From: a virus
DNA length: 7,894 bases
Direction: 5' to 3' (one strand)
IMG/VR virus record: IMGVR_UViG_3300011013_000867
Span: 1-7,894 of that record
Shown: in pieces, positions 1-7,894 of the stretch
How the letters are laid out: every line of letters starts with the position of its first letter
How positions within the stretch are numbered: position 1 is the stretch's first letter
The notes under the pieces: generated by a model
Database searches by the model: none
What the model was told of the DNA's origin: nothing
What the model saw: the letters and a program-made list of their open reading frames with translations, nothing else
Position numbers and translations under genes: made by a program

Positions 1-170
1 ATTAGAATTAGATGAATTAGAATTAGAACTGTTATCAGAAGTAGATGAATTAGAATTAGATGAATTAGAATTAGAACTGTTATCAGAAGTAGATGAATTA
101 GAATTAGATGAATTAGAATTAGATGAGCTTGATGAATTAGAATTAGATGAATTAGAATTAGATGTATCAT
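1..170. repeat. In-frame tandem repeat: 48-nt unit x2 (1-48, 49-96) followed by degenerate 15-nt sub-repeats; encodes SNSNSSNSNSSTSDNS-type linker
   Basis: The unit attagaattagatgaattagaattagaactgttatcagaagtagatga occurs twice without mismatch. The attagaattagatga motif continues to about base 165. Confidence 0.9.
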
Positions 171-855
171 TTGAAAAAGAAAGAGTAAATCTTCTATAAC
201 CATCGTGCGGAACAATTTTAGTTAAATTACTCTCATTACCATCAGAATAACAAAAAGAATTAGACGCATAAACAGGTACATCATCATAACATTTTTTACC
301 ATCACCAACAATATCAATACATTTATTAACTCCATAATTAGTCATAGTATCCATACAATCAAAAGCTAAATTAAGACCTTTTTGAGAGCAAAAATAATAA
401 AAAATTCCATAAAGATCGTTACAATTTTTTGGTTTATGATATTGAACGCATCTATAATCGCTAATGTTTTCATCAAATAAAAGATAAGAACCTTCAGAAC
501 AAATACACCTATTACCAGAATGATTAGGAACAAAATTAGCATCACACTCACACTTATTAGAACCAACCTTATGAGAAAATGGAGGACACTTATAAACAGG
601 ACGTTGAATTTGATACCAACAAACATAATAATGTATATGTCTATAACGATTATAATAATGATATGTACTTAAATATTTACAATGTGGATAATGAACTTGC
701 TTACAATATTTTTTAACATAATTTTTACAACCGGTATTATCAGGCAAAACCCAAGTTTTATTACCTACATTCTTAAATTCTACATAAGCAGAGATATATC
801 CAGAAGCAAAAGAAAAAACTAAAAAAAGATTAAAAAAGAGAAAAATAAATCTCAT
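1..855 (-). CDS. pIII-like adsorption/minor coat protein, N-terminal 285 codons (signal peptide, 16-Cys domain, Ser/Asn-rich linker); runs off the left edge and continues at the right edge
   Basis: ATG at 855 (cat at 853-855) is preceded by AGGA with a 6-nt spacer. Hand translation reads MRFIFLFFNLFLVFSFASGYISAYVEFKNVGNKTWVLPDNTGCKNYVKKYCKQVHYPHCKYLSTYHYYNRYRHIHYYVCWYQIQRPVYKCPPFSHKVGSNKCECDANFVPNHSGNRCICSEGSYLLFDENISDYRCVQYHKPKNCNDLYGIFYYFCSQKGLNLAFDCMDTMTNYGVNKCIDIVGDGKKCYDDVPVYASNSFCYSDGNESNLTKIVPHDGYRRFTLSFSNDTSNSNSSNSNSSSSSNSNSS... and has no stop down to base 1. It is absent from the ORF track because no stop lies inside the window. Confidence 0.75.
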   Translation of the reverse strand, partial: MRFIFLFFNLFLVFSFASGYISAYVEFKNVGNKTWVLPDNTGCKNYVKKYCKQVHYPHCKYLSTYHYYNRYRHIHYYVCWYQIQRPVYKCPPFSHKVGSNKCECDANFVPNHSGNRCICSEGSYLLFDENISDYRCVQYHKPKNCNDLYGIFYYFCSQKGLNLAFDCMDTMTNYGVNKCIDIVGDGKKCYDDVPVYASNSFCYSDGNESNLTKIVPHDGYRRFTLSFSNDTSNSNSSNSNSSSSSNSNSSNSNSSTSDNSSNSNSSNSNSSTSDNSSNSNSSNSN

Positions 856-863
856 TAAAAATC

Positions 864-992
864 CTATGAAGATTCTTTAATGAGAGACAGAATTGCAAAA
901 AAAGGAACCAAGATAACAGCAAACCAAATCATAATCGAAGCAAAATAATTAAATACAACATCATTAGTTAAATCTATAATTGTTATATCCAT
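864..992 (-). CDS. 42-aa small hydrophobic protein, candidate pVII/pIX-like minor (tip) coat protein
   Basis: Hand translation from ATG at 992 (AAGG 7 nt upstream) gives MDITIIDLTNDVVFNYFASIMIWFAVILVPFFAILSLIKESS, ending at TAG 864-866. It has one hydrophobic segment and no signal peptide. It is wedged between the 69-aa ORF stop (1005) and the pIII-like start (855). It is too short for the supplied track. Confidence 0.5.
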   Translation of the reverse strand: MDITIIDLTNDVVFNYFASIMIWFAVILVPFFAILSLIKESS

Positions 993-1004
993 AGATAAAC
1001 CTTT

Positions 1005-1214
1005 TTATTTAACAACTACTTTTATAGAAAAATATAAAATAACAAAACCAACCAAAACACCACTTAAACCCATAAGGAAATTATAATCATTATAAGCTAA
1101 ATTAAGATTATTAGCAATCTTTGTAGCATTATAATCATCATCAGAAAAAGAAAAAACAGGGAGTATTAAAAATAAGATTCTAATTAAGATGAGTTTTAAG
1201 CAGCTTAATCGCAT
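1005..1214 (-). CDS. 69-aa secreted coat-like protein (signal peptide, acidic N-terminus, hydrophobic core, basic C-terminus)
   Basis: The track ORF 1005..1223 begins at a GTG; the first ATG is at 1214 (cat at 1212-1214), with GGGGTG upstream. Sequence: MRLSCLKLILIRILFLILPVFSFS|DDDYNATKIANNLNLAYNDYNFLMGLSGVLVGFVILYFSIKVVVK. The layout resembles pVIII. Confidence 0.55.
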   Translation of the reverse strand: MRLSCLKLILIRILFLILPVFSFSDDDYNATKIANNLNLAYNDYNFLMGLSGVLVGFVILYFSIKVVVK

Positions 1215-1286
1215 TTTTAACACCCCACAAAAAAACCATAAAAGTTAAAAAAGAGCTAAAAAAAACTACAAAATTATCAACATAAA

Positions 1287-1316
1287 TTTTAAAACCCACG
1301 GGAAAAAACTCCCGTG
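1287..1316 (-). terminator. Rho-independent terminator candidate directly after the major coat gene
   Basis: A 7-bp stem (cacggga 1297-1303 paired with tcccgtg 1310-1316) encloses a 6-nt loop. On the minus strand this reads CACGGGA-GTTTTT-TCCCGTG followed by GGTTTTAAAA. The GC-rich stem stands out in AT-rich DNA. Confidence 0.5.
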
Positions 1317-1496
1317 TTATCTAATTAAGTGTAGAGCTTTTTTAATAGCCCATATACCAGCCAAGCCAGTCAATAAAGCACCAGCAACAGTAACAACATT
1401 GCTTAAATCAAATGTAGGAGCAGTCAAAGTAGCATCCGCAAAAGCCATAGAAGCACCAAGACCAACTACAGCAGCAATCTTAAAAAGCTTTTTCAT
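1317..1496 (-). CDS. 59-aa major coat protein (pVIII-like)
   Basis: Hand translation from ATG at 1496 (AAGGAG 6 nt upstream) gives MKKLFKIAAVVGLGASMAFA|DATLTAPTFDLSNVVTVAGALLTGLAGIWAIKKALHLIR, with TAA at 1317-1319. It has a signal peptide with an AxA site. The mature ~39-aa product has an acidic N-terminus, a hydrophobic middle and a basic C-terminus. A GC-stem hairpin follows immediately, as after Ff gene VIII. Not in the supplied track. Confidence 0.8.
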   Translation of the reverse strand: MKKLFKIAAVVGLGASMAFADATLTAPTFDLSNVVTVAGALLTGLAGIWAIKKALHLIR

Positions 1497-1520
1497 AGAA
1501 AACTCCTTAAAAAAAATTTT

Positions 1521-1537
1521 TTAGGGATTAACCCTAA
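1521..1537 (-). promoter_or_regulatory. Small hairpin between the ssDNA-binding gene and the coat gene (weak attenuator or mRNA element candidate)
   Basis: ttaggg (1521-1526) pairs with ccctaa (1532-1537) around a 5-nt loop. On the minus strand it is followed by AAAAATTTTTTTT and then the coat AAGGAG. Confidence 0.25.
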
Positions 1538-1615
1538 TAATATTTTATAATCTTTTTACTTAATTATTTCTTAACTTTCAATAAATCATTTTACCAGAAA
1601 AGAAAGAAATAAAAC

Positions 1616-1969
1616 TCATTTTTTCAACAAACTATCAATATATTTAACAAATTCATTAGAATCAGAAACTTTAACTTGAAACTGACTTTTTCCTCCTGTT
1701 GGCATAGGAATTTGTGTTTTGAACTCCAAAATTACATTTTTCTTTCTAATTTCATCTAATTTATCACGCAAAATTAAAGCATTACTGTATTTTTCCAAAG
1801 GAACAACAAAAATTATATCTTGAACAATCTCATTACCATTTTCATCAAGCTTAAACGCTTGTGAAGAAAATTGAACTTTTGAAGGAAAAGAAATACCTTG
1901 AAAAGTACCACTTTCCAAAGCTTTTAAACCACTAAAACCTTTAACACGAAAAATAATATCTAAACTCAT
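1616..1969 (-). CDS. 117-aa putative ssDNA-binding protein (gene V analogue, assigned by position only)
   Basis: A strong AAGGAG lies 5 nt upstream of ATG 1969. The small soluble protein sits immediately after rep and before the coat gene, which is the gene V slot in Ff-type genomes. I recognised no sequence motif. Confidence 0.5.
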   Translation of the reverse strand: MSLDIIFRVKGFSGLKALESGTFQGISFPSKVQFSSQAFKLDENGNEIVQDIIFVVPLEKYSNALILRDKLDEIRKKNVILEFKTQIPMPTGGKSQFQVKVSDSNEFVKYIDSLLKK

Positions 1970-2027
1970 ATAAACTCCTTATAATTTATTTGTAATATAA
2001 TTATAATAAAATAATATAAAATATAAC

Positions 2028-3014
2028 TTAAACAATATAATAATTATTAAAATCTTTAGAAAAAAACAATTTATTATTATGATATATCTTCAAAACATTG
2101 TTTTTAAAAACAATAGTATGATTTAAATCAGAATTATAAAGAACAAACTCACCCTTTTTAAAGTTCTTTTCTTTAACATCATAAAAAACAGTATAATCAA
2201 ACCAATCTGAATTTAAAAAAAATATTTTCTTATATATCCAAAAAGGTAAAACAGAAAAAGAAGTCGTAAATCTTCTAATCTTATATTTTAAATACCAAAC
2301 TTGCAAAGCATCTAATTTTTGATTTTTTTTTATATTTAAAAATGATTTTGTAGTATATTTTAAAATATAACCTACAGGATTTTTTAAAGCAACTTCAAAT
2401 TTTTTTTGTTTAGCAGGAAAATATTCATAAAACTTATTTTTAACTTCATCAACAAAATCATTATGTATCCAAAGAAGCATATGAATATGAGGAACTCCAT
2501 CAGATCGATGAGGCTCTGTAGCTCTAATATAAGCCCTCTTATAACCCAATTTCCTCATTTTCCTAAAAACATTTGTATAAATAAATCTCCATAACTGAAA
2601 ATTTAAAATATTATACAAATCTTTAATAGTAAAAACTTCATTATTATTTATCTTATCACGCAAAAAACCAAAACGTTCATTATTTGGAATATATCTATCG
2701 TAAAAATTTCTATTTTTTAAATTATTATACCTTTTAAAATTAGAACATAAAAAATCACGAAAAAAACCATCCAAAGTAACAGTTAAAAAAATAGGAACTA
2801 AACGAAAATTAGATGATATTAACTTAAAAGTATTAATTTTGTTTATAAGGGTATTATAATAACGCTCACTTAAATTAGCAGACATAGAAATATCTAAAAA
2901 AGTTTTTACTTCACCATTTGAATTTACAATATGTTTATTATTTAAAAAACTTCTTTGTTGCTCTAATTTTTTATTATAAAAAATTATATCAGACTCAGAA
3001 ATACCATACAACAT
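2028..3014 (-). CDS. 328-aa HUH-superfamily rolling-circle replication initiator (Rep)
   Basis: Three RCR motifs occur in canonical order: FLTVTL (residues 76-81), PHIHMLLW with HUH = H176-I-H178 (plus strand aagcatatgaatatg at 2475-2489), and GYILKYTTK with Y216 and Y220 (YxxKY). Confidence 0.9.
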   Translation of the reverse strand: MLYGISESDIIFYNKKLEQQRSFLNNKHIVNSNGEVKTFLDISMSANLSERYYNTLINKINTFKLISSNFRLVPIFLTVTLDGFFRDFLCSNFKRYNNLKNRNFYDRYIPNNERFGFLRDKINNNEVFTIKDLYNILNFQLWRFIYTNVFRKMRKLGYKRAYIRATEPHRSDGVPHIHMLLWIHNDFVDEVKNKFYEYFPAKQKKFEVALKNPVGYILKYTTKSFLNIKKNQKLDALQVWYLKYKIRRFTTSFSVLPFWIYKKIFFLNSDWFDYTVFYDVKEKNFKKGEFVLYNSDLNHTIVFKNNVLKIYHNNKLFFSKDFNNYYIV

Positions 3015-3104
3015 TTTTTATCTTTTTATAAATTTTTTATATATTTTATATTTTTTAATTTATTTTAATTTTATTAATTATTAATAATTTAAATATATTT
3101 TATC

Positions 3105-3132
3105 ATTACAACATTTTTTGTTAATTTGTCAA
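3105..3132 (-). promoter_or_regulatory. Sigma70-like promoter candidate for rep
   Basis: On the minus strand: TTGACA (3132-3127), a 16-nt spacer ending TGt, then TGTAAT (3110-3105). This is about 90 nt upstream of the rep ATG and abuts the GC hairpin. -10-like hexamers are common in AT-rich DNA, but TTGACA is rare here. Confidence 0.35.
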
Positions 3133-3133
3133 G

Positions 3134-3178
3134 GGACGCTGCGCGTCCGCTCGCAAGCTCGCTATCCGCGTAGCGTCC
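3134..3178. promoter_or_regulatory. GC-rich imperfect hairpin; candidate replication origin/nick-site or packaging structure
   Basis: ggacgctgcgcg (3134-3145) pairs with cgcgtagcgtcc (3167-3178), giving 12 bp with one G.T position and a 21-nt loop containing gctcgc twice. An alternative local hairpin is ggacgc (3134-3139) with gcgtcc (3143-3148). Region 3133-3178 is 33/46 G+C by hand count. It lies between the RHH gene and the rep promoter candidate. Confidence 0.55.
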
Positions 3179-3206
3179 TATTTCTTTCTTTATTATACAA
3201 AAAAAA

Positions 3207-3371
3207 TTAATTAAAAAGAGAAGAATTCTTAATAACATAATCTTTAATCAACATTCTAATAACTTTGCTTGCATCTAAATCTTTTGATTTGCATACACTC
3301 ATAAATATTTTTTTAGTATTTTTATCTATAAGCACAGATATTCTATCATTTTTAATATTTTTATGCTTCAT
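3207..3371 (-). CDS. 54-aa ribbon-helix-helix (CopG/Arc-like) DNA-binding protein
   Basis: Hand translation from ATG 3371 (GGAG 5 nt upstream) gives MKHKNIKNDRISVLIDKNTKKIFMSVCKSKDLDASKVIRMLIKDYVIKNSSLFN, with TAA at 3207-3209. RISVLI(strand)-KNTKKIFMSVCKSK(helix)-DLDAS-KVIRMLIKDYV(helix) aligns without gaps with CopG RLTITLSESVLENLEKMAREMGLSKSAMISVALENY (recalled from memory). Not in the supplied track. Confidence 0.6.
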   Translation of the reverse strand: MKHKNIKNDRISVLIDKNTKKIFMSVCKSKDLDASKVIRMLIKDYVIKNSSLFN

Positions 3372-3419
3372 AATAACTCCAAAAAAATTTTTACAATATT
3401 ATTATAACAAAATTAAAAT

Positions 3420-4163
3420 CTATGAATTTTTTAATTTATTATTTTCTAAAAAAGAATAAAAAACATCAATATTTTTTAGTCTTCTATTATACATCTTATT
3501 CCAAAGATACAAAGCATCTTCACGATTGCAAAAATCATCATAATAATAACAATAAATAAAACCATTTCTAATCTCAAAAACAACATCATCTTTAAATCTT
3601 TCAGGATCTGAAAACTTAAAACCATTAAAATATTTAGTAATAAAATCTTTAAATTCTTTAAGAGAGATATTTTTAAAAAACTCTCTCAAATCTTCTTTAG
3701 TAGAGAGAGTATTTATTATATTTCTTTTATTAGTATATTCAATATTTAATAGTGTCTTGTTATCCGATGTCGGATTTTCCAACTTCGGAGTTGACAACGT
3801 AGGATTATCAACATTTTTATCAATATTTTCATTTTCTTTTAATTGCTCTTCGTATTTTTTTAAAGGTATTTCATAAACTTCATATTCAACTCTTAAAAAT
3901 CTACCTTTCTCATCTCTTATAGTATTTCTAACTAAATATCCAGAATTTTCAAGCTCTTTCAAACCAGAACGTAAAGAATCACGACCATCAGTAGAACGAT
4001 TAACTAAATCATTCAAACGAACTTGCCAATTAGAAGGACGAGAAAACAAATACAACAAAATTCCTTTAGCTTTCCAAGAAAGACCGCAATCACTTATAAA
4101 ACCATTATCAACGACAGTATAATTTCTTAACTTCTTTTGCTTAAACTGTAGTAAAGAACTCAT
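3420..4163 (-). CDS. 247-aa winged-helix DNA-binding protein of the DnaD/plasmid-phage replication-initiator-like (HTH_36-type) kind; C-terminal half unassigned
   Basis: AGGAG lies 6 nt upstream of ATG 4163. The N-terminus YTVVDNGFISDCGLSWKAKGILLYLFSRPSNWQVRLNDLVNRSTDGRDSLRSGLKELENSGYLVRNTIRDEKGRFLRVEYEVYEIP matches the pattern I know from that family (LS..AKG..LYL.S.P..W....DL.......I...LKELE..GYL......D..G.F....Y.VYE.P). It is followed by a DNP...ENP...LLNIEYTNK linker typical of those proteins. Confidence 0.75.
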   Translation of the reverse strand: MSSLLQFKQKKLRNYTVVDNGFISDCGLSWKAKGILLYLFSRPSNWQVRLNDLVNRSTDGRDSLRSGLKELENSGYLVRNTIRDEKGRFLRVEYEVYEIPLKKYEEQLKENENIDKNVDNPTLSTPKLENPTSDNKTLLNIEYTNKRNIINTLSTKEDLREFFKNISLKEFKDFITKYFNGFKFSDPERFKDDVVFEIRNGFIYCYYYDDFCNREDALYLWNKMYNRRLKNIDVFYSFLENNKLKNS

Positions 4164-4193
4164 AATAAACTCCTAAATAAATAATGTAAAAAC

Positions 4194-4221
4194 ATTATAA
4201 TAAAATTATAATAAAAAGCAA
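4194..4221 (-). promoter_or_regulatory. Promoter candidate for the wHTH/RHH genes
   Basis: On the minus strand: TTGCTT (4221-4216), a 16-nt spacer, then TATAAT (4199-4194), about 30 nt upstream of ATG 4163. Specificity is low in AT-rich DNA. Confidence 0.25.
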
Positions 4222-4287
4222 ATAAAATATAAAAAAATAAATAAATTAGCTTTTTTTAACAAACTGATTGAGAGTTTAAAACAATAT

Positions 4288-4343
4288 GAGCAAAGATTTT
4301 TTTTTGCTTTTTTGACACGAAGCAAAAAAAATCTACTTTGCTC
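4288..4343. promoter_or_regulatory. Long imperfect AT-rich hairpin downstream of the secretin gene; candidate packaging signal and/or terminator
   Basis: gagcaaag (4288-4295) pairs with ctttgctc (4336-4343). The T9 run (4297-4305) pairs with the A8 run (4324-4331). gctt (4306-4309) pairs with aagc (4320-4323). This gives about 20 bp, a small bulge and a 10-nt loop ttttgacacg. On the minus strand it is followed by ATATTGTTTT. Confidence 0.45.
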
Positions 4344-4522
4344 TCAAACCTTATTAAGTATATACAAAATATTTACATTATCAACATAATAATATCATTT
4401 CAATTTGATATGACAGTTATATTATTACATTAATATTATTTGATATTAAATAATATTATTAAAAGCTTAAAAATTTTTCGAGTTTCGCACGATTCAAGCA
4501 ATTTATAAGTTTATCTAATTAT

Positions 4523-5698
4523 TCAATGATTTTTAAAAGGATTATTTTTATTTATAAATTTTAAAAGAGGATTTGAAGTTTTCAAAACATTAACATTAAG
4601 ATACAAAATATAAGTAAATTTTAAATCTGAATGAGTAGATGAATTAAACAAATTTTTAATGATAGGAATATCAGAAAGCAACGGAATATATTTTCTATTA
4701 TCTTTTGCAAAAACATCAGTGTTTAATCCAGCAATGGCAATTTTTTGCCCAACAGGAATTATAAAAGAAGTATCTAAATCTATAGCATTTTTAACATAAT
4801 TATCATTTCTACTATCATAATAACTATCTTCAAAAAACATTTTAATCAAAACTTTATCACTTATCAGAACAGGCTTAACTCTAAAAATAAGACCCACAGT
4901 TTTCTCTTCATAAGTAGTCGTATTTGTAGGAATAGTCTTATCATAAGAAGTAATAATCTGATTAGGTATTCTATAAACCTTTGAATTAGTAAACCTAACA
5001 GATTGACCAGATAGACAAATAAAGTTAGGCTTTACAATAGAATTTATATAACCCTTACTTTCTAAAAAGTCAAGATAAACAGAAATATCATCACCCGAGT
5101 TTCTATAGTCAAATCCAATCTTTTTAAAAAAATCAAAAAATAAAGATGGATTAGAATATTCATTAATAGATTTAATAAGAATATTTAAATTAATATTATT
5201 ATTTTTTATATTATTAATGTTAACGCGATAAATAGAACTTATAAATTTTAATGTCTTTGGAAAATTTATTTGTTTAATTGTTTTATAAAAACGATTAAAA
5301 TCATCAGTTTTATCATACAAAACAATAAAATTATTTTTGTTTAAATAATGAACTTCTAAATTAAATTTACTAGCAATATTATTAAGTTTTTTTATATTCA
5401 AATTATTAATTTTTATAATTTTTGATTTTTTAGGAATTTTTTTAATGTAATAAAATCCAGCATTATAAGATAGATAATAATTATTAGGTATAAGAACTTG
5501 TTTAATCATATCAATATATTGTTTCTTTGAAATATCATCATGCACAGACATGAAAACATTAATATTCATATCTTTATCGTACAAAAAATTTATATTGTAT
5601 CTCTCTGAAACAAACAAAATAAAATCTTTAAATTTTAATTGTAGAACATTAGCACTAACAAAAGAAAAAGTTAAAAACAAAAACAATAAAAATCTCAT
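4523..5698 (-). CDS. 391-aa outer-membrane secretin (pIV-like)
   Basis: It has a signal peptide MRFLLFLFLTFSFVSA and an N-domain-like LKFKDFILFVSERYNINFLYD. The secretin C-domain pattern is present: YLDFLESKGYINSIVKPNFICLSGQSVRF...KTVGLIFRVKPVLISDKVLIKMFFEDS...DTSFIIPVGQKIAIAGL...YIPLLSDIPIIKNLF. GGAGG is upstream, and the ATGA overlaps the pI stop. Confidence 0.85.
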   Translation of the reverse strand: MRFLLFLFLTFSFVSANVLQLKFKDFILFVSERYNINFLYDKDMNINVFMSVHDDISKKQYIDMIKQVLIPNNYYLSYNAGFYYIKKIPKKSKIIKINNLNIKKLNNIASKFNLEVHYLNKNNFIVLYDKTDDFNRFYKTIKQINFPKTLKFISSIYRVNINNIKNNNINLNILIKSINEYSNPSLFFDFFKKIGFDYRNSGDDISVYLDFLESKGYINSIVKPNFICLSGQSVRFTNSKVYRIPNQIITSYDKTIPTNTTTYEEKTVGLIFRVKPVLISDKVLIKMFFEDSYYDSRNDNYVKNAIDLDTSFIIPVGQKIAIAGLNTDVFAKDNRKYIPLLSDIPIIKNLFNSSTHSDLKFTYILYLNVNVLKTSNPLLKFINKNNPFKNH

Positions 5699-6798
5699 CT
5701 AAAAAGACCTCCAGAACCAAAAAGATAAGTATTATTATTATCAAACTTTTGAATAGTCTTAATCTTATTAGCATTAACATATTTATCCAAAATCTTAAAT
5801 TTATAATTATTTAAAGAATAGCAATAAAAAAAATATAAACCATATGAACGCTTAAATATAAGCTTTTGACCTTTAATAATATATTTAACAAATGCAACAT
5901 TCAAATAAACATCTTTGTAATAACAGCTATCCTTACTACACTTAAAAAATACAATATTGTCAGAATTAGAAGTATTATCAACAAAATTATTCTTACCATT
6001 TTCAGATTGATATTGTTTAATATTAGATTGACTTAAAACTTTTTCATTGTCAACAGGAACATTTTTTTTATCTTCAGAAGAAGACATAAAATATCGAATA
6101 ATAAAAAAAGCAAGAAAAAATAAAAGCAATAAAACCAAAGCAATAAGACCAAATTTTTGTATAAAACTCTTATTTTGAACAGAAGAGCCAGAATTATATA
6201 ACAAAAAAACGTCAGGAATAACAGAAACAGATATAACAGAAACTTTTTGAGTATTATACATTTTATCGCCAGAGTACAAATTGTATCTCATTTTGTTTTT
6301 TGAAATCCTCAAAGAAGATGGAAAAGCTTTATAAAAATGCTCCGAGAAAGCTTTATATTTTGAATCAACGAGAGATAAATTTTGAGTTACTAAAATTATC
6401 TCTTGATACAAATGCCTTGCATATGAAAGCCACCAAATTAAAACATCGTCTTTCTTGCTCAAATAATTATGACATTCATCAAAAACAATCAAACATCTTG
6501 ATAATTTATATTCAGAAGCTTTTTCATTTAATTCAACATCAGTAACATTATCTTTATAAAGAGCATATAAATCTGATAAATAATTGTAAAAATTCTTAAA
6601 ATTTATATTTTCAACATTATCAAATTTTGATAAATCCAAACCATTGATATTAGTATAGCAAAAATCAATATTTTTTACTTCAAAATCTTTCTTTATCTTT
6701 TTTTTTAACTCTTCATCTTTAACGAAGTTTTTAACAATAAATAGTAGTGAAAAATAAGTTTTACCACTTCCAATTACACCTGTAACAAAGCGTATCAT
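5695..6798 (-). CDS. 367-aa pI/Zot-family P-loop assembly ATPase
   Basis: An N-terminal Walker A (MIRFVTGVIGSGKTY), a Walker B (CLIVFDECH) and a central TM segment (FGLIALVLLLLFFLAFFIIRYF) precede a Cys-containing C-terminal domain. The gene sits directly upstream of the secretin with 4-nt overlaps on both sides. Confidence 0.9.
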   Translation of the reverse strand: MIRFVTGVIGSGKTYFSLLFIVKNFVKDEELKKKIKKDFEVKNIDFCYTNINGLDLSKFDNVENINFKNFYNYLSDLYALYKDNVTDVELNEKASEYKLSRCLIVFDECHNYLSKKDDVLIWWLSYARHLYQEIILVTQNLSLVDSKYKAFSEHFYKAFPSSLRISKNKMRYNLYSGDKMYNTQKVSVISVSVIPDVFLLYNSGSSVQNKSFIQKFGLIALVLLLLFFLAFFIIRYFMSSSEDKKNVPVDNEKVLSQSNIKQYQSENGKNNFVDNTSNSDNIVFFKCSKDSCYYKDVYLNVAFVKYIIKGQKLIFKRSYGLYFFYCYSLNNYKFKILDKYVNANKIKTIQKFDNNNTYLFGSGGLFR

Positions 6799-7226
6799 GC
6801 AACACCACGAAGAGCATCTTTAATTAAATTTTTTAATATTCTTTTTGCTTCAACTGACATTTTATAAAAAATAAAAGTGAAAACAAATAAAATTGAAGAG
6901 AAAAAAATAGGTTTTGATTGATTAATACCATCTAAAAAACCAGAGCAAGAAAGCATATGAGAAATCATTTTAAAAATACAACTTGATTGAGAACTAACAG
7001 AGCCAGAGCTACCAGAAGCTAAAATTTGTATATTATGTAATACATTTGTTATTAAATTGTATAAATCAGAAAGAGTAACAAGTATAAAAACATAAAAAGT
7101 TATAACAGCAGAATAATAAGATACCAAAAAAGTATATTCTATCGCAATTACAACTGTTTTAGTAGAAAATTTCTTAACAAAGAAAGATATTAAATCACCC
7201 AAGAAAGCAACAATTGCACCCCACAT
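6795..7226 (-). CDS. 143-aa multi-pass membrane protein, pVI-like minor coat protein (by position)
   Basis: GGAG lies inside the last codons of the pIII-like gene, with ATG at 7226. Several hydrophobic segments are present. The gene lies between the pIII-like and pI genes, as Ff gene VI does. I recognised no sequence motif. Confidence 0.55.
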   Translation of the reverse strand: MWGAIVAFLGDLISFFVKKFSTKTVVIAIEYTFLVSYYSAVITFYVFILVTLSDLYNLITNVLHNIQILASGSSGSVSSQSSCIFKMISHMLSCSGFLDGINQSKPIFFSSILFVFTFIFYKMSVEAKRILKNLIKDALRGVA

Positions 7227-7228
7227 AA

Positions 7229-7894
7229 TTAACTCCTAAATCTTAAAATTGTTTTAACAACTATAAGAATAGACAAAATACTTATTAAAATATTAATTAT
7301 TAATGCAATAATCGGAGCCATAGGAGAAATGTATGGACAAAAATCAATTGAGATCTCTTTACCGTTAAAAGGATTTCTAAATTTTGCACATACAGGAAGA
7401 TTATCATTTTTATGAATATCTAATTTAAAACCTCTTCTAAAAACATCTTTCGTTTTAGAAATCTCTCGAAATAAAGAATCAAAATCACTTTTAACATTAT
7501 CTTTAAATTTGTTAAAACCAGAAAACAAACTATCTTCTTTACCAGTCAAAGTATTTAAGCCACTTGTATCAATATTATAATTAACATCTTTACCAGCACC
7601 TTGACCAGCGTTACAATGTTTAAACTCATTATTACCAGAACTACCACCAGAGCTACCAGAACTACCACCAGAGCTACCAGAACTACCACCAGAGCTACCA
7701 GAACTACCACCAGAGCTACCAGAGCTACCACCAGAGCTACCAGAACTACCACCAGAGCTACCAGAACTACCACCAGAGCTAGTCAAAGGATCTGAAATAT
7801 TAGAATTAGATGAATTAGAATTAGAACTGTTATCAGAAGTAGATGAATTAGAATTAGATGAATTAGAATTAGAACTGTTATCAGAAGTAGATGA
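7229..7894 (-). CDS. pIII-like adsorption/minor coat protein, C-terminal part (Ser/Asn linker, (SSGGSSG)x7 linker, C-terminal domain with membrane anchor); 7799-7894 duplicates 1-96
   Basis: The reading frame stays open from the right edge to TAA at 7229-7231. The tracker's M at 7786 is a TTG inside ...SNSNISDPLTSSGG... The frame matches the 855-start ORF when 7799=1: codon first bases fall at 7786, 7789...7801=3, and 855 is also 0 mod 3. The C-terminus MAPIIALIINILISILSILIVVKTILRFRS is a hydrophobic anchor plus basic tail, as in Ff g3p. The joined product is 474 aa. Confidence 0.75.
   Translation of the reverse strand, partial: SSTSDNSSNSNSSNSNSSTSDNSSNSNSSNSNISDPLTSSGGSSGSSGGSSGSSGGSSGSSGGSSGSSGGSSGSSGGSSGSSGGSSGNNEFKHCNAGQGAGKDVNYNIDTSGLNTLTGKEDSLFSGFNKFKDNVKSDFDSLFREISKTKDVFRRGFKLDIHKNDNLPVCAKFRNPFNGKEISIDFCPYISPMAPIIALIINILISILSILIVVKTILRFRS
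7634..7780. repeat. Seven tandem 21-nt in-frame repeats encoding (SSGGSSG)x7
   Basis: The unit accagaactaccaccagagct starts at 7634, 7655, 7676, 7697, 7718, 7739 and 7760. Six copies are identical. The fifth has one substitution (a->g at 7724), which is synonymous on the coding strand (AGT->AGC). Confidence 0.95.
7799..7894. repeat. Terminal redundancy: exact copy of bases 1-96 (the same two 48-nt units)
   Basis: Direct comparison of the window ends. The identity starts at 'at' (7799-7800) after ...tctgaaat. Confidence 0.95.

Follow-up and report, generated by a model that had tools for sequence, protein, structure and literature searches.

What is encoded by the gene that runs across both ends of the virus record IMGVR_UViG_3300011013_000867? 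The record was analysed over its whole length of 7,894 nucleotides (nt) (positions 1 to 7,894, hereafter the window). From its letters alone, the gene had been predicted to encode a junction-spanning adsorption protein resembling pIII (g3p) of filamentous phages, with an unrecognisable, Cys-rich N-terminal domain (N-domain). We conclude that the product is probably a pIII-type minor coat (attachment) protein of a circular, secretin-encoding filamentous phage whose closest relatives are prophages of Campylobacterota, and that its Cys-rich N-domain is most likely a receptor-binding domain. The pIII-type reading is drawn from the inovirus context (pI/Zot, secretin and Rep), the M13-like gene order, the presence of two hydrophobic segments and the repeat-encoded linker.

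Architecture of the junction-spanning protein

The two halves of the gene, read on the minus strand from 855 to 1 and from 7798 to 7229, join into one open frame of 474 codons followed by a stop. An AGGA ribosome-binding site (862-865) lies 6 nt upstream of the ATG. The window, in which all sizeable open reading frames (ORFs) are on the minus strand, has a G+C content of 24%. At this composition, about 9% of random codons are stops and the chance of a 474-codon open frame is about 1e-19 (composition arithmetic); with so AT-rich a sequence, chance cannot account for a frame so long. The gene and its product are divided as follows.

853..855, minus strand: ATG start codon of the pIII-like gene, read from the sequence and its translation
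802..855, minus strand: signal peptide, about residues 1-18 (MRFIFLFFNLFLVFSFAS), by Kyte-Doolittle hydropathy; kept in the sister variants and similar in the prophage relatives L002 and L004
604..804, minus strand: hypervariable N-terminal sub-domain, residues 18-84, with four invariant cysteines (C43, C51, C59, C79), by variant comparison
613-663, minus strand: His/Tyr stretch, residues 65-81, within the hypervariable sub-domain
178..603, minus strand: conserved core of the N-domain (N-core), residues 85-226, with 12 invariant cysteines, by variant comparison
499-552, minus strand: CxC-x12-CxC module, residues 102-119, within the conserved core
1..177, minus strand: linker, part 1, residues 227-285, Ser/Asn-rich; a 48-nt tandem repeat of 3.3 copies according to Tandem Repeats Finder (TRF)
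7625..7798, minus strand: linker, part 2, residues 286-343, with the end of the Ser/Asn (SN) repeat, ISDPLT and (SGGSSGS)n; a 21-nt repeat of 7.1 copies according to TRF
7343..7624, minus strand: C-terminal domain (C-domain), residues 344-437, with the hairpin motif C422...GK.I.ID.C439 immediately ahead of the anchor, by sequence comparison
7229..7342, minus strand: membrane anchor at the C-terminus, residues 438-474, then the short basic tail RFRS and the stop (7229-7231), by hydropathy and AlphaFold2 (AF2)
7799..7894, no strand: terminal duplication of bases 1-96, an overlap of the circular assembly and not an extra part of the gene

Only two segments of the protein are hydrophobic, residues 1-23 and 438-474 (Kyte-Doolittle; up to 3.2 in the anchor), and its C-terminal end reads ...KTILRFRS. 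The g3p-like architecture that had been proposed was found again in the signal peptide, the N-domain, the C-domain and the anchor, but not in its separate linkers: residues 227-343 form a single composite linker, encoded by the 48-nt and 21-nt tandem repeats.

The translation contains the 16 N-domain cysteines that had been described from C43 to C202 (residues 43, 51, 59, 79, 90, 102, 104, 117, 119, 136, 145, 156, 167, 179, 189 and 202), together with the CxC pairs KCECD and RCICS and the His/Tyr stretch YHYYNRYRHIHYYVCWY. Cysteine makes up about 7.2-7.5% of the N-domain against 0.8% of the other proteins of the phage, an enrichment of about nine-fold (binomial p = 5e-11). The corresponding values are 11.7% against 5.9% for Tyr and 4.2% against 1.0% for His. 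The even cysteine count holds for the N-domain but not for the mature protein, which has 19 with the addition of C347 and the C-domain pair C422/C439. C347 (codon 7613-7615) makes this count odd. It lies outside both cysteine clusters, just after the Gly/Ser linker, at a site where L049, one of the variants described below, has Asn. This unpaired extra cysteine could be free or form an intermolecular bond.

Variation and relatives of the N-terminal domain

Sister phages were reached through the protein of 42 amino acids (aa) encoded directly upstream, which falls in a cluster of four members at at least 90% identity. The sister contigs, from IMG 3300002242 and from ENA ERZ27251151 and ERZ27248471, run on into truncated pIII genes with products of 227 aa (L045), 146 aa (L046), 304 aa (L047), 253 aa (L048) and 505 aa (L049, without the last residues only). 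All come from metagenomes that are the same or related. IMG 3300002242 ('KVWGV2') may be a mat metagenome of the Kolumbo submarine volcano; a literature search for the sample identifiers gave nothing. Presumably, these homologues escaped the database searches because contig ends truncate the encoded proteins. They are 39-54% identical to the N-domain of the window. The description of this domain as unrecognisable is right in that it belongs to no described family, but it is not a singleton.

All 16 N-domain cysteines are invariant in the homologues, and their spacing is nearly fixed from C79 onward. No His is conserved among the four variants compared. The unusual His/Tyr stretch, present in the window, has a partial counterpart in L045 and none in L047 or L049; it is specific to this variant and no feature of the family. 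Amino acid identity to the window and the ratio of non-synonymous to synonymous rates (dN/dS) were as follows.

42-aa gene (L045-L049): 85-95% identity; dN/dS 0.06-0.32
72-aa gene: 83-94% identity; dN/dS 0.25-0.42
pIII C-domain (L049): 74% identity; dN/dS 0.40
N-core, residues 85-226: 48-65% identity; dN/dS 0.41-0.64
Residues 18-84: 22-41% identity, with insertions and deletions; dN/dS 0.96-3.2

The non-synonymous excess in residues 18-84 over the core was significant in four of six pairs (Fisher p = 0.003-0.04). Comparison of pIII homologues had been proposed as the way to see whether the N-domain is the variable cassette. The N-regions diverge and the C-domain is conserved: the N-domain is clearly an exchangeable cassette and the C-domain the conserved part. 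The receptor-binding reading is drawn from this pattern, in which 16 of 16 cysteines are invariant and the neighbours 85-95% identical, with residues 18-84 at only 22-41%.

The N-domain, moreover, looks like a mosaic. Over residues 136-226 (178-450), the window goes with L047 and L048, and L045 and L046 go with L049 (dN 0.23 each). Over residues 18-84 (604-804), the window is closest to L045. This suggests recombination between sub-domain alleles among co-occurring phages. A diversity-generating retroelement was rejected as the source of the variation: none of the genes of this 7.8-kb phage matched a reverse transcriptase. There are two types of the core and four of the variable part. A more far-reaching proposal, which we hold to be possible but doubtful, is that the 16-Cys domain is an unseen disulfide-rich fold, serving as a programmable receptor-binding scaffold: a rigid core with eight disulfides would bear the hypervariable sub-domain, whose alleles would be shuffled among co-infecting phages, and the target would be a non-pilus receptor of vent-dwelling Campylobacterota.

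Among known proteins, a word-indexed search of 5.8e9 proteins gave no relative of the N-domain, and an exhaustive phmmer search of 1.84e9 representatives returned its own protein alone. Pfam and PHROGs, searched with the whole protein and with four segments, gave noise, low-complexity or unannotated matches only. Against PDB, phmmer and a four-sequence profile of the N-domain gave nothing relevant. DNA and protein searches of GenBank phages found nothing, with only a chance-level match to a jumbo phage in tblastn with the N-domain. IMG/VR scans with pI and with an N-core alignment also found nothing, as did two scans of metagenome contigs with N-domain alignments, the first of them weakened by having the signal peptide as its search pattern. 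The earlier statement that the domain could not be related to the Ff N1/N2 domains agrees with these results: Pfam gave only noise at E <= 10, and PDB nothing relevant.

A single-sequence AF2 model of the N-domain had a predicted local distance difference test (pLDDT) score of 47, with 60-76 over query residues 20-110. In this stretch, the low-confidence model has a helix and then beta-hairpins, one of them over the His/Tyr stretch. Foldseek searches with this model against PDB and BFVD gave nothing at E <= 1e-3, a null result that neither supports nor excludes a known fold because the model is poor. With models of this quality, there was no confident match to a known receptor-binding fold in Pfam, PDB or Foldseek.

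Residues 102-136 read C-x-C-x12-C-x-C-x16-C, and the low-confidence AF2 model draws short beta-hairpins there, in the manner of EGF-like or CxC hairpin modules. What we take to be the PROSITE EGF_2-type pattern fits the L047 and L049 variants but not the window sequence. The Pfam hEGF profile gave E = 2.1 and 9.4 bits against a cutoff of 29.3, and Foldseek matches to cbEGF were far from significant. With hEGF below its cutoff and the window sequence off the pattern, membership of the N-domain in the EGF-like group was rejected.

For a wider comparison, the position-equivalent ORF was extracted from 29 Campylobacterota loci. A signal peptide and the C-terminal motif with its anchor are present in all 29, and a low-complexity linker is recognisable in about half. 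Their N-terminal regions mostly contain 8-18 cysteines, at a density of 2.5-6.7%, with 2-8 in the long proteins L005, L037 and L039. The window N-domain showed no similarity to these 29 proteins (lowest E: single sequence, 0.28; four-sequence profile, 0.011), none of which contains the CxC-x12-CxC module. High cysteine content is a clade-wide habit, and this N-domain family is restricted to a few phages that occur together.

By analogy with Ff, these features can be put together in the following mechanism. The signal peptide would export the pIII-like protein to the periplasm (Sec), where the C-terminal helix would anchor it to the inner membrane. The C-domain and a pVI-like protein would cap the virion as its assembly terminates through the phage's own secretin. 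The long Ser/Asn/Gly tether would display the N-domain of about 210 residues at the tip, where it would bind the host surface and start infection. The N-domain itself would be a scaffold held by up to eight disulfides, in which residues 18-84, including the His/Tyr hairpin, would most likely set receptor specificity, and the conserved core (residues 85-226) may supply the fold or interact with a host component that is itself conserved. Variability and position thus fit the proposal that the N-domain is the site of host recognition; the adsorption function is one that we infer from position, architecture and the pattern of variation.

The protein might also be a pIII equivalent whose Cys-rich N-domain is not a receptor binder but a tip stabiliser, a means of aggregation or biofilm attachment, or a secreted effector. 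Cys-rich N-regions run through all 29 position-equivalent proteins, different as their sequences are, and a general need for stability could lie behind this; no fold can be assigned to the domain, and its binding is a prediction. To our knowledge, however, every inovirus studied (Ff, CTXphi) binds its receptor and co-receptor through the N-terminal part of pIII. In addition, the concentration of non-synonymous change in residues 18-84, on a cysteine scaffold that is kept, points to an arms-race interface and not to a purely structural element. A role other than receptor binding is therefore considered unlikely.

The C-terminal domain, the cysteines and the contiguity of the gene

Directly before the anchor, the protein reads C422-AKFRNPFNGKEISIDF-C439, and more than 25 position-equivalent proteins share C...GK.(I/V).(I/F)D.C followed by a hydrophobic helix. 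The C422-C439 motif and the anchor align collinearly with the motif CRPFVFSAGKPYEFSIDC of M13, If1 and IKe pIII and with the M13 anchor. In blastp, the C-domain matched M13 pIII with E = 4e-4 (single comparison). In hhalign, the probability was 12.8% against one M13 sequence and rose to 38.5% (E = 3.3e-4) when 27 sequences were compared with M13, If1, IKe and PEar6, over 48 columns that include both cysteines and the anchor. A word-indexed homologue search with the C-domain returned nothing. Its single-sequence AF2 model had a pLDDT of 49, with the anchor helix alone confident (pLDDT 84-97). Sequence evidence, synteny and architecture together make the identity as pIII well supported.

Several points weigh against reading the protein as a receptor-binding pIII. 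Homology of the C-domain to Ff pIII is suggestive, at an hhalign probability below 50%, and does not reach a confident level. When a C-domain profile was compared with PDB, no pIII was among the 60 matches listed (143 at E <= 10), the best of those listed being with unrelated coiled-coil proteins (E = 0.013). A dN/dS above 1 was individually significant in only two of six pairs (p = 0.006 and 0.014), and this ratio is a simple Nei-Gojobori count over about 65 codons with extreme AT bias and a difficult alignment. Relaxed constraint may also explain the divergence of residues 18-84. Because of the short segments, the AT bias, the simple counting and the hard alignment, we limit the claim to fast, at least neutral evolution on a fixed cysteine scaffold: residues 18-84 appear to evolve in this way, and positive selection is not proven. 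The N-domain may have a known fold after all, as the AF2 models reached pLDDT scores of 47 and 49 only. Receptor binding, disulfide formation and location in the virion are all things that we infer.

A further possibility is that the protein at the pIII position is an analogue and not a homologue of Ff pIII, recruited independently as a tip protein and provided with a convergent C-terminal anchor. This would agree with the lack of any Pfam, PHROG-annotated or PDB sequence match to pIII, and with an hhalign probability that is low and extends over few columns. However, the segment that aligns lies in collinear order at the very C-terminus, with both cysteines, the GK turn and the anchor, and the flanking genes (pVI position, pI and pIV) are in canonical order. 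Independent recruitment appears very unlikely to us.

Returning to the pIII-type protein with its 16-Cys domain, we considered the state of its cysteines. Together with His, they might coordinate metal, as in a zinc-ribbon or metallothionein-like protein, in place of forming disulfides: the first sub-domain is rich in both residues, for example C51-x7-C59 with H55 and H58. However, all 16 cysteines and none of the histidines are conserved among the four variants. The Sec-type signal peptide and the membrane anchor imply folding in an oxidising periplasm, and Ff pIII has disulfides in all its domains. A His/Cys metal site was rejected on the lack of His conservation, and metal coordination is highly improbable. 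Up to eight disulfides would be favoured over metal sites because of the 16 invariant cysteines, the periplasmic route and the non-conserved His.

As for the gene itself, bases 7799-7894 of the window are an exact copy of bases 1-96 (two 48-nt units), which makes it a circular genome with a unit length of 7,798 nt. The phage was assembled a second time, independently, as ENA contig ERZ27251151:k141_253690 (L001, 7,786 nt), which was found via pI. It is broken inside the secretin gene, and its own end overlap of 141 nt lies elsewhere than that of the window. Outside the repeats, the two assemblies are 100% identical, and the pIII-like gene of L001 is one uninterrupted ORF of 423 aa (L001:4231-5502). 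Both assemblies agree in the frame, the N-domain and the C-domain; the linker alone differs (423 versus 474 aa), as L001 lacks one 16-residue SN-repeat unit and 35 residues of the SGGSSGS repeat. The joined 474-aa product of the original prediction is confirmed by the joined frame and by the contiguous gene on L001, and its two halves are contiguous.

Although the contig ends inside a tandem repeat whose copy number differs between assemblies, an assembly artefact from repeat-induced false circularisation is next to impossible and was rejected, as L001, broken in the secretin gene, has the whole gene and is 100% identical elsewhere, and N-domain, linker and C-domain follow one another in the same way in the homologue of nearly full length on the sister contig L049.

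The two assemblies do not have the same number of copies of the linker repeats, 48 nt and 21 nt long (window 1-164 and 7633-7894), and the ends of the window fall inside the 48-nt repeat. The exact linker length may be an assembly uncertainty or reflect real heterogeneity in the phage population.

Genome context and comparison with known systems

The following genes accompany the pIII-like gene.

864..992, minus strand: 42-aa hydrophobic protein, small and minor-coat-like, directly upstream of the pIII-like gene; the protein of the four-member cluster used above
1317..1496, minus strand: 59-aa major-coat-like protein, with signal peptide, hydrophobic helix and basic C-terminus; assigned by position and form only
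6795..7226, minus strand: 143-aa pVI-position gene, directly downstream of the pIII-like gene, in the same position as M13 gene VI
5695..6798, minus strand: pI/Zot morphogenesis ATPase, the inovirus marker (Pfam Zot, E = 2.3e-18; PHROG 197, E = 1.4e-19)
4523..5698, minus strand: pIV secretin (Pfam Secretin, E = 3.2e-16; PHROG 1012 'protein IV of M13', E = 4.7e-20)
2028-3014: rolling-circle Rep (REP_ORF2-G2P, E = 7e-9)

The gene order (59-aa coat-like, 72 aa, 42 aa, pIII-like, 143 aa, pI/Zot, pIV secretin) matches M13 VIII-III-VI-I-(IV), and an ORF of 134-143 aa is conserved at the pVI position in relatives. A diderm host is implied by the pIV secretin. When the 59-aa coat-like protein was compared with L045:250-432 and L046:1793-1972, the last 35 residues were nearly invariant; identity over the whole protein was 71-86%, as the variants differ in the signal peptide and the exposed N-terminus, so the virion surface varies too. 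In the periplasmic C-terminal part of pI/Zot, C287 and C292 are invariant across 22 relatives in a region that is otherwise strongly divergent.

Two other genes form a second replication or regulation module beside the rolling-circle Rep. A 247-aa helix-turn-helix (HTH) protein (3420-4163, minus strand) matches PHROG replication-initiator and DnaD-like families with E down to 1e-25, and a 54-aa protein (3207-3371, minus strand) is tagged RHH_9 in the ENA annotation. AT-rich tandem repeats of 19-21 nt at 1993-2053 and 3013-3102 flank the Rep gene and are candidate origin or regulatory repeats. No integrase is encoded in the window, and the circle closes in two assemblies; related chromosomal elements of Campylobacterota have tyrosine integrases (L002:12718-13866 and L005:11128-12225). 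The phage of the window may thus exist only as an episome.

Those top relatives of pI that are named are from Campylobacterota (Campylobacter concisus, Sulfurimonas, Arcobacter/Aliarcobacter, Sulfuricurvum and Sulfurospirillaceae), with pI identities of 27-43%. A pI profile search gave 37 genome loci, the great majority from Campylobacterota, with a few records of metagenome-assembled genomes (MAGs) labelled Gracilibacteria, Aquificales or 'bacterium', or unlabelled. The closest long contigs, L002 and L004, have a G+C content of 24%, like the window. The prophage relative in L002 adjoins RnlA/RnlB (L002:187-1582), and that in L004 adjoins AAA_15/DUF4435 and a restriction-enzyme fragment (L004:164-2603). 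These defence or toxin-antitoxin neighbours belong to prophages in hosts of 24% G+C. By its sequence relationships, the small circular filamentous phage of the window probably has a vent-type Campylobacterota host. Inovirus-like elements of Sulfurimonas have been placed in the proposed family Amplinoviridae (PMC11531552; the family was proposed in PMC6813254), which has no isolates and whose attachment proteins are not discussed in the survey (PMC11531552). The link to this family is made through the clustering of pI with Campylobacterota prophages, with the family name taken from PMC11531552.

The N-domain family matches no described fold or family, and, pIII N-domains being lineage-specific, this is diversity of the expected kind. 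Among the Campylobacterota are C. concisus, a pathogen of mouth and gut with zot prophages that are being studied, and the sulfur-oxidisers that dominate vents; we know of no filamentous-phage receptor for the vent-dwelling members. No filamentous phage of Campylobacterota is in culture (PMC11531552). The gene family described here is a concrete candidate for a host-recognition module, one in which the hypervariable patch has been mapped and the scaffold is conserved. Phage display might also profit from a small secreted scaffold with eight disulfides and one sub-domain in which heavy change is tolerated.

Among known systems, g3p/pIII of Ff (M13/fd/f1) is encoded at the same position upstream of VI, I and IV. 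Like the window protein, it has a signal peptide, a repeat-encoded Gly/Ser-rich tether, disulfide-containing N-terminal domains (disulfides that are predicted for the window protein), and a C-domain that ends in a Cys...GK...ID.C hairpin, one anchor and a basic tail. The two differ in several respects. The window N-domain has no detectable similarity to Ff N1 (TolA-binding) or N2 (pilus-binding) and no visible N1/N2 split. It has 16 cysteines in about 210 residues against 6 in the M13 N1+N2 translation. There is one composite linker against two in Ff, and the similarity to the Ff pIII C-domain is marginal.

In pIII(CTX)/OrfU of CTXphi and in other non-Ff pIII proteins, the N-domains are lineage-specific; what stays constant is the C-terminal assembly domain and the position of the gene. 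The window N-domain had no sequence relation to these proteins (tblastn, GenBank phages). The nearest counterparts are the inovirus-like prophages of Campylobacterota (C. concisus zot, Sulfurimonas, Arcobacter and Sulfuricurvum). Their N-domains are unrelated in sequence to that of the window, and many of these elements have integrases, unlike the window. They share with it a pI that is 33-50% identical, the gene order, including the upstream 42-aa gene, and the same protein architecture, Cys-rich N-regions and C-terminal motif.

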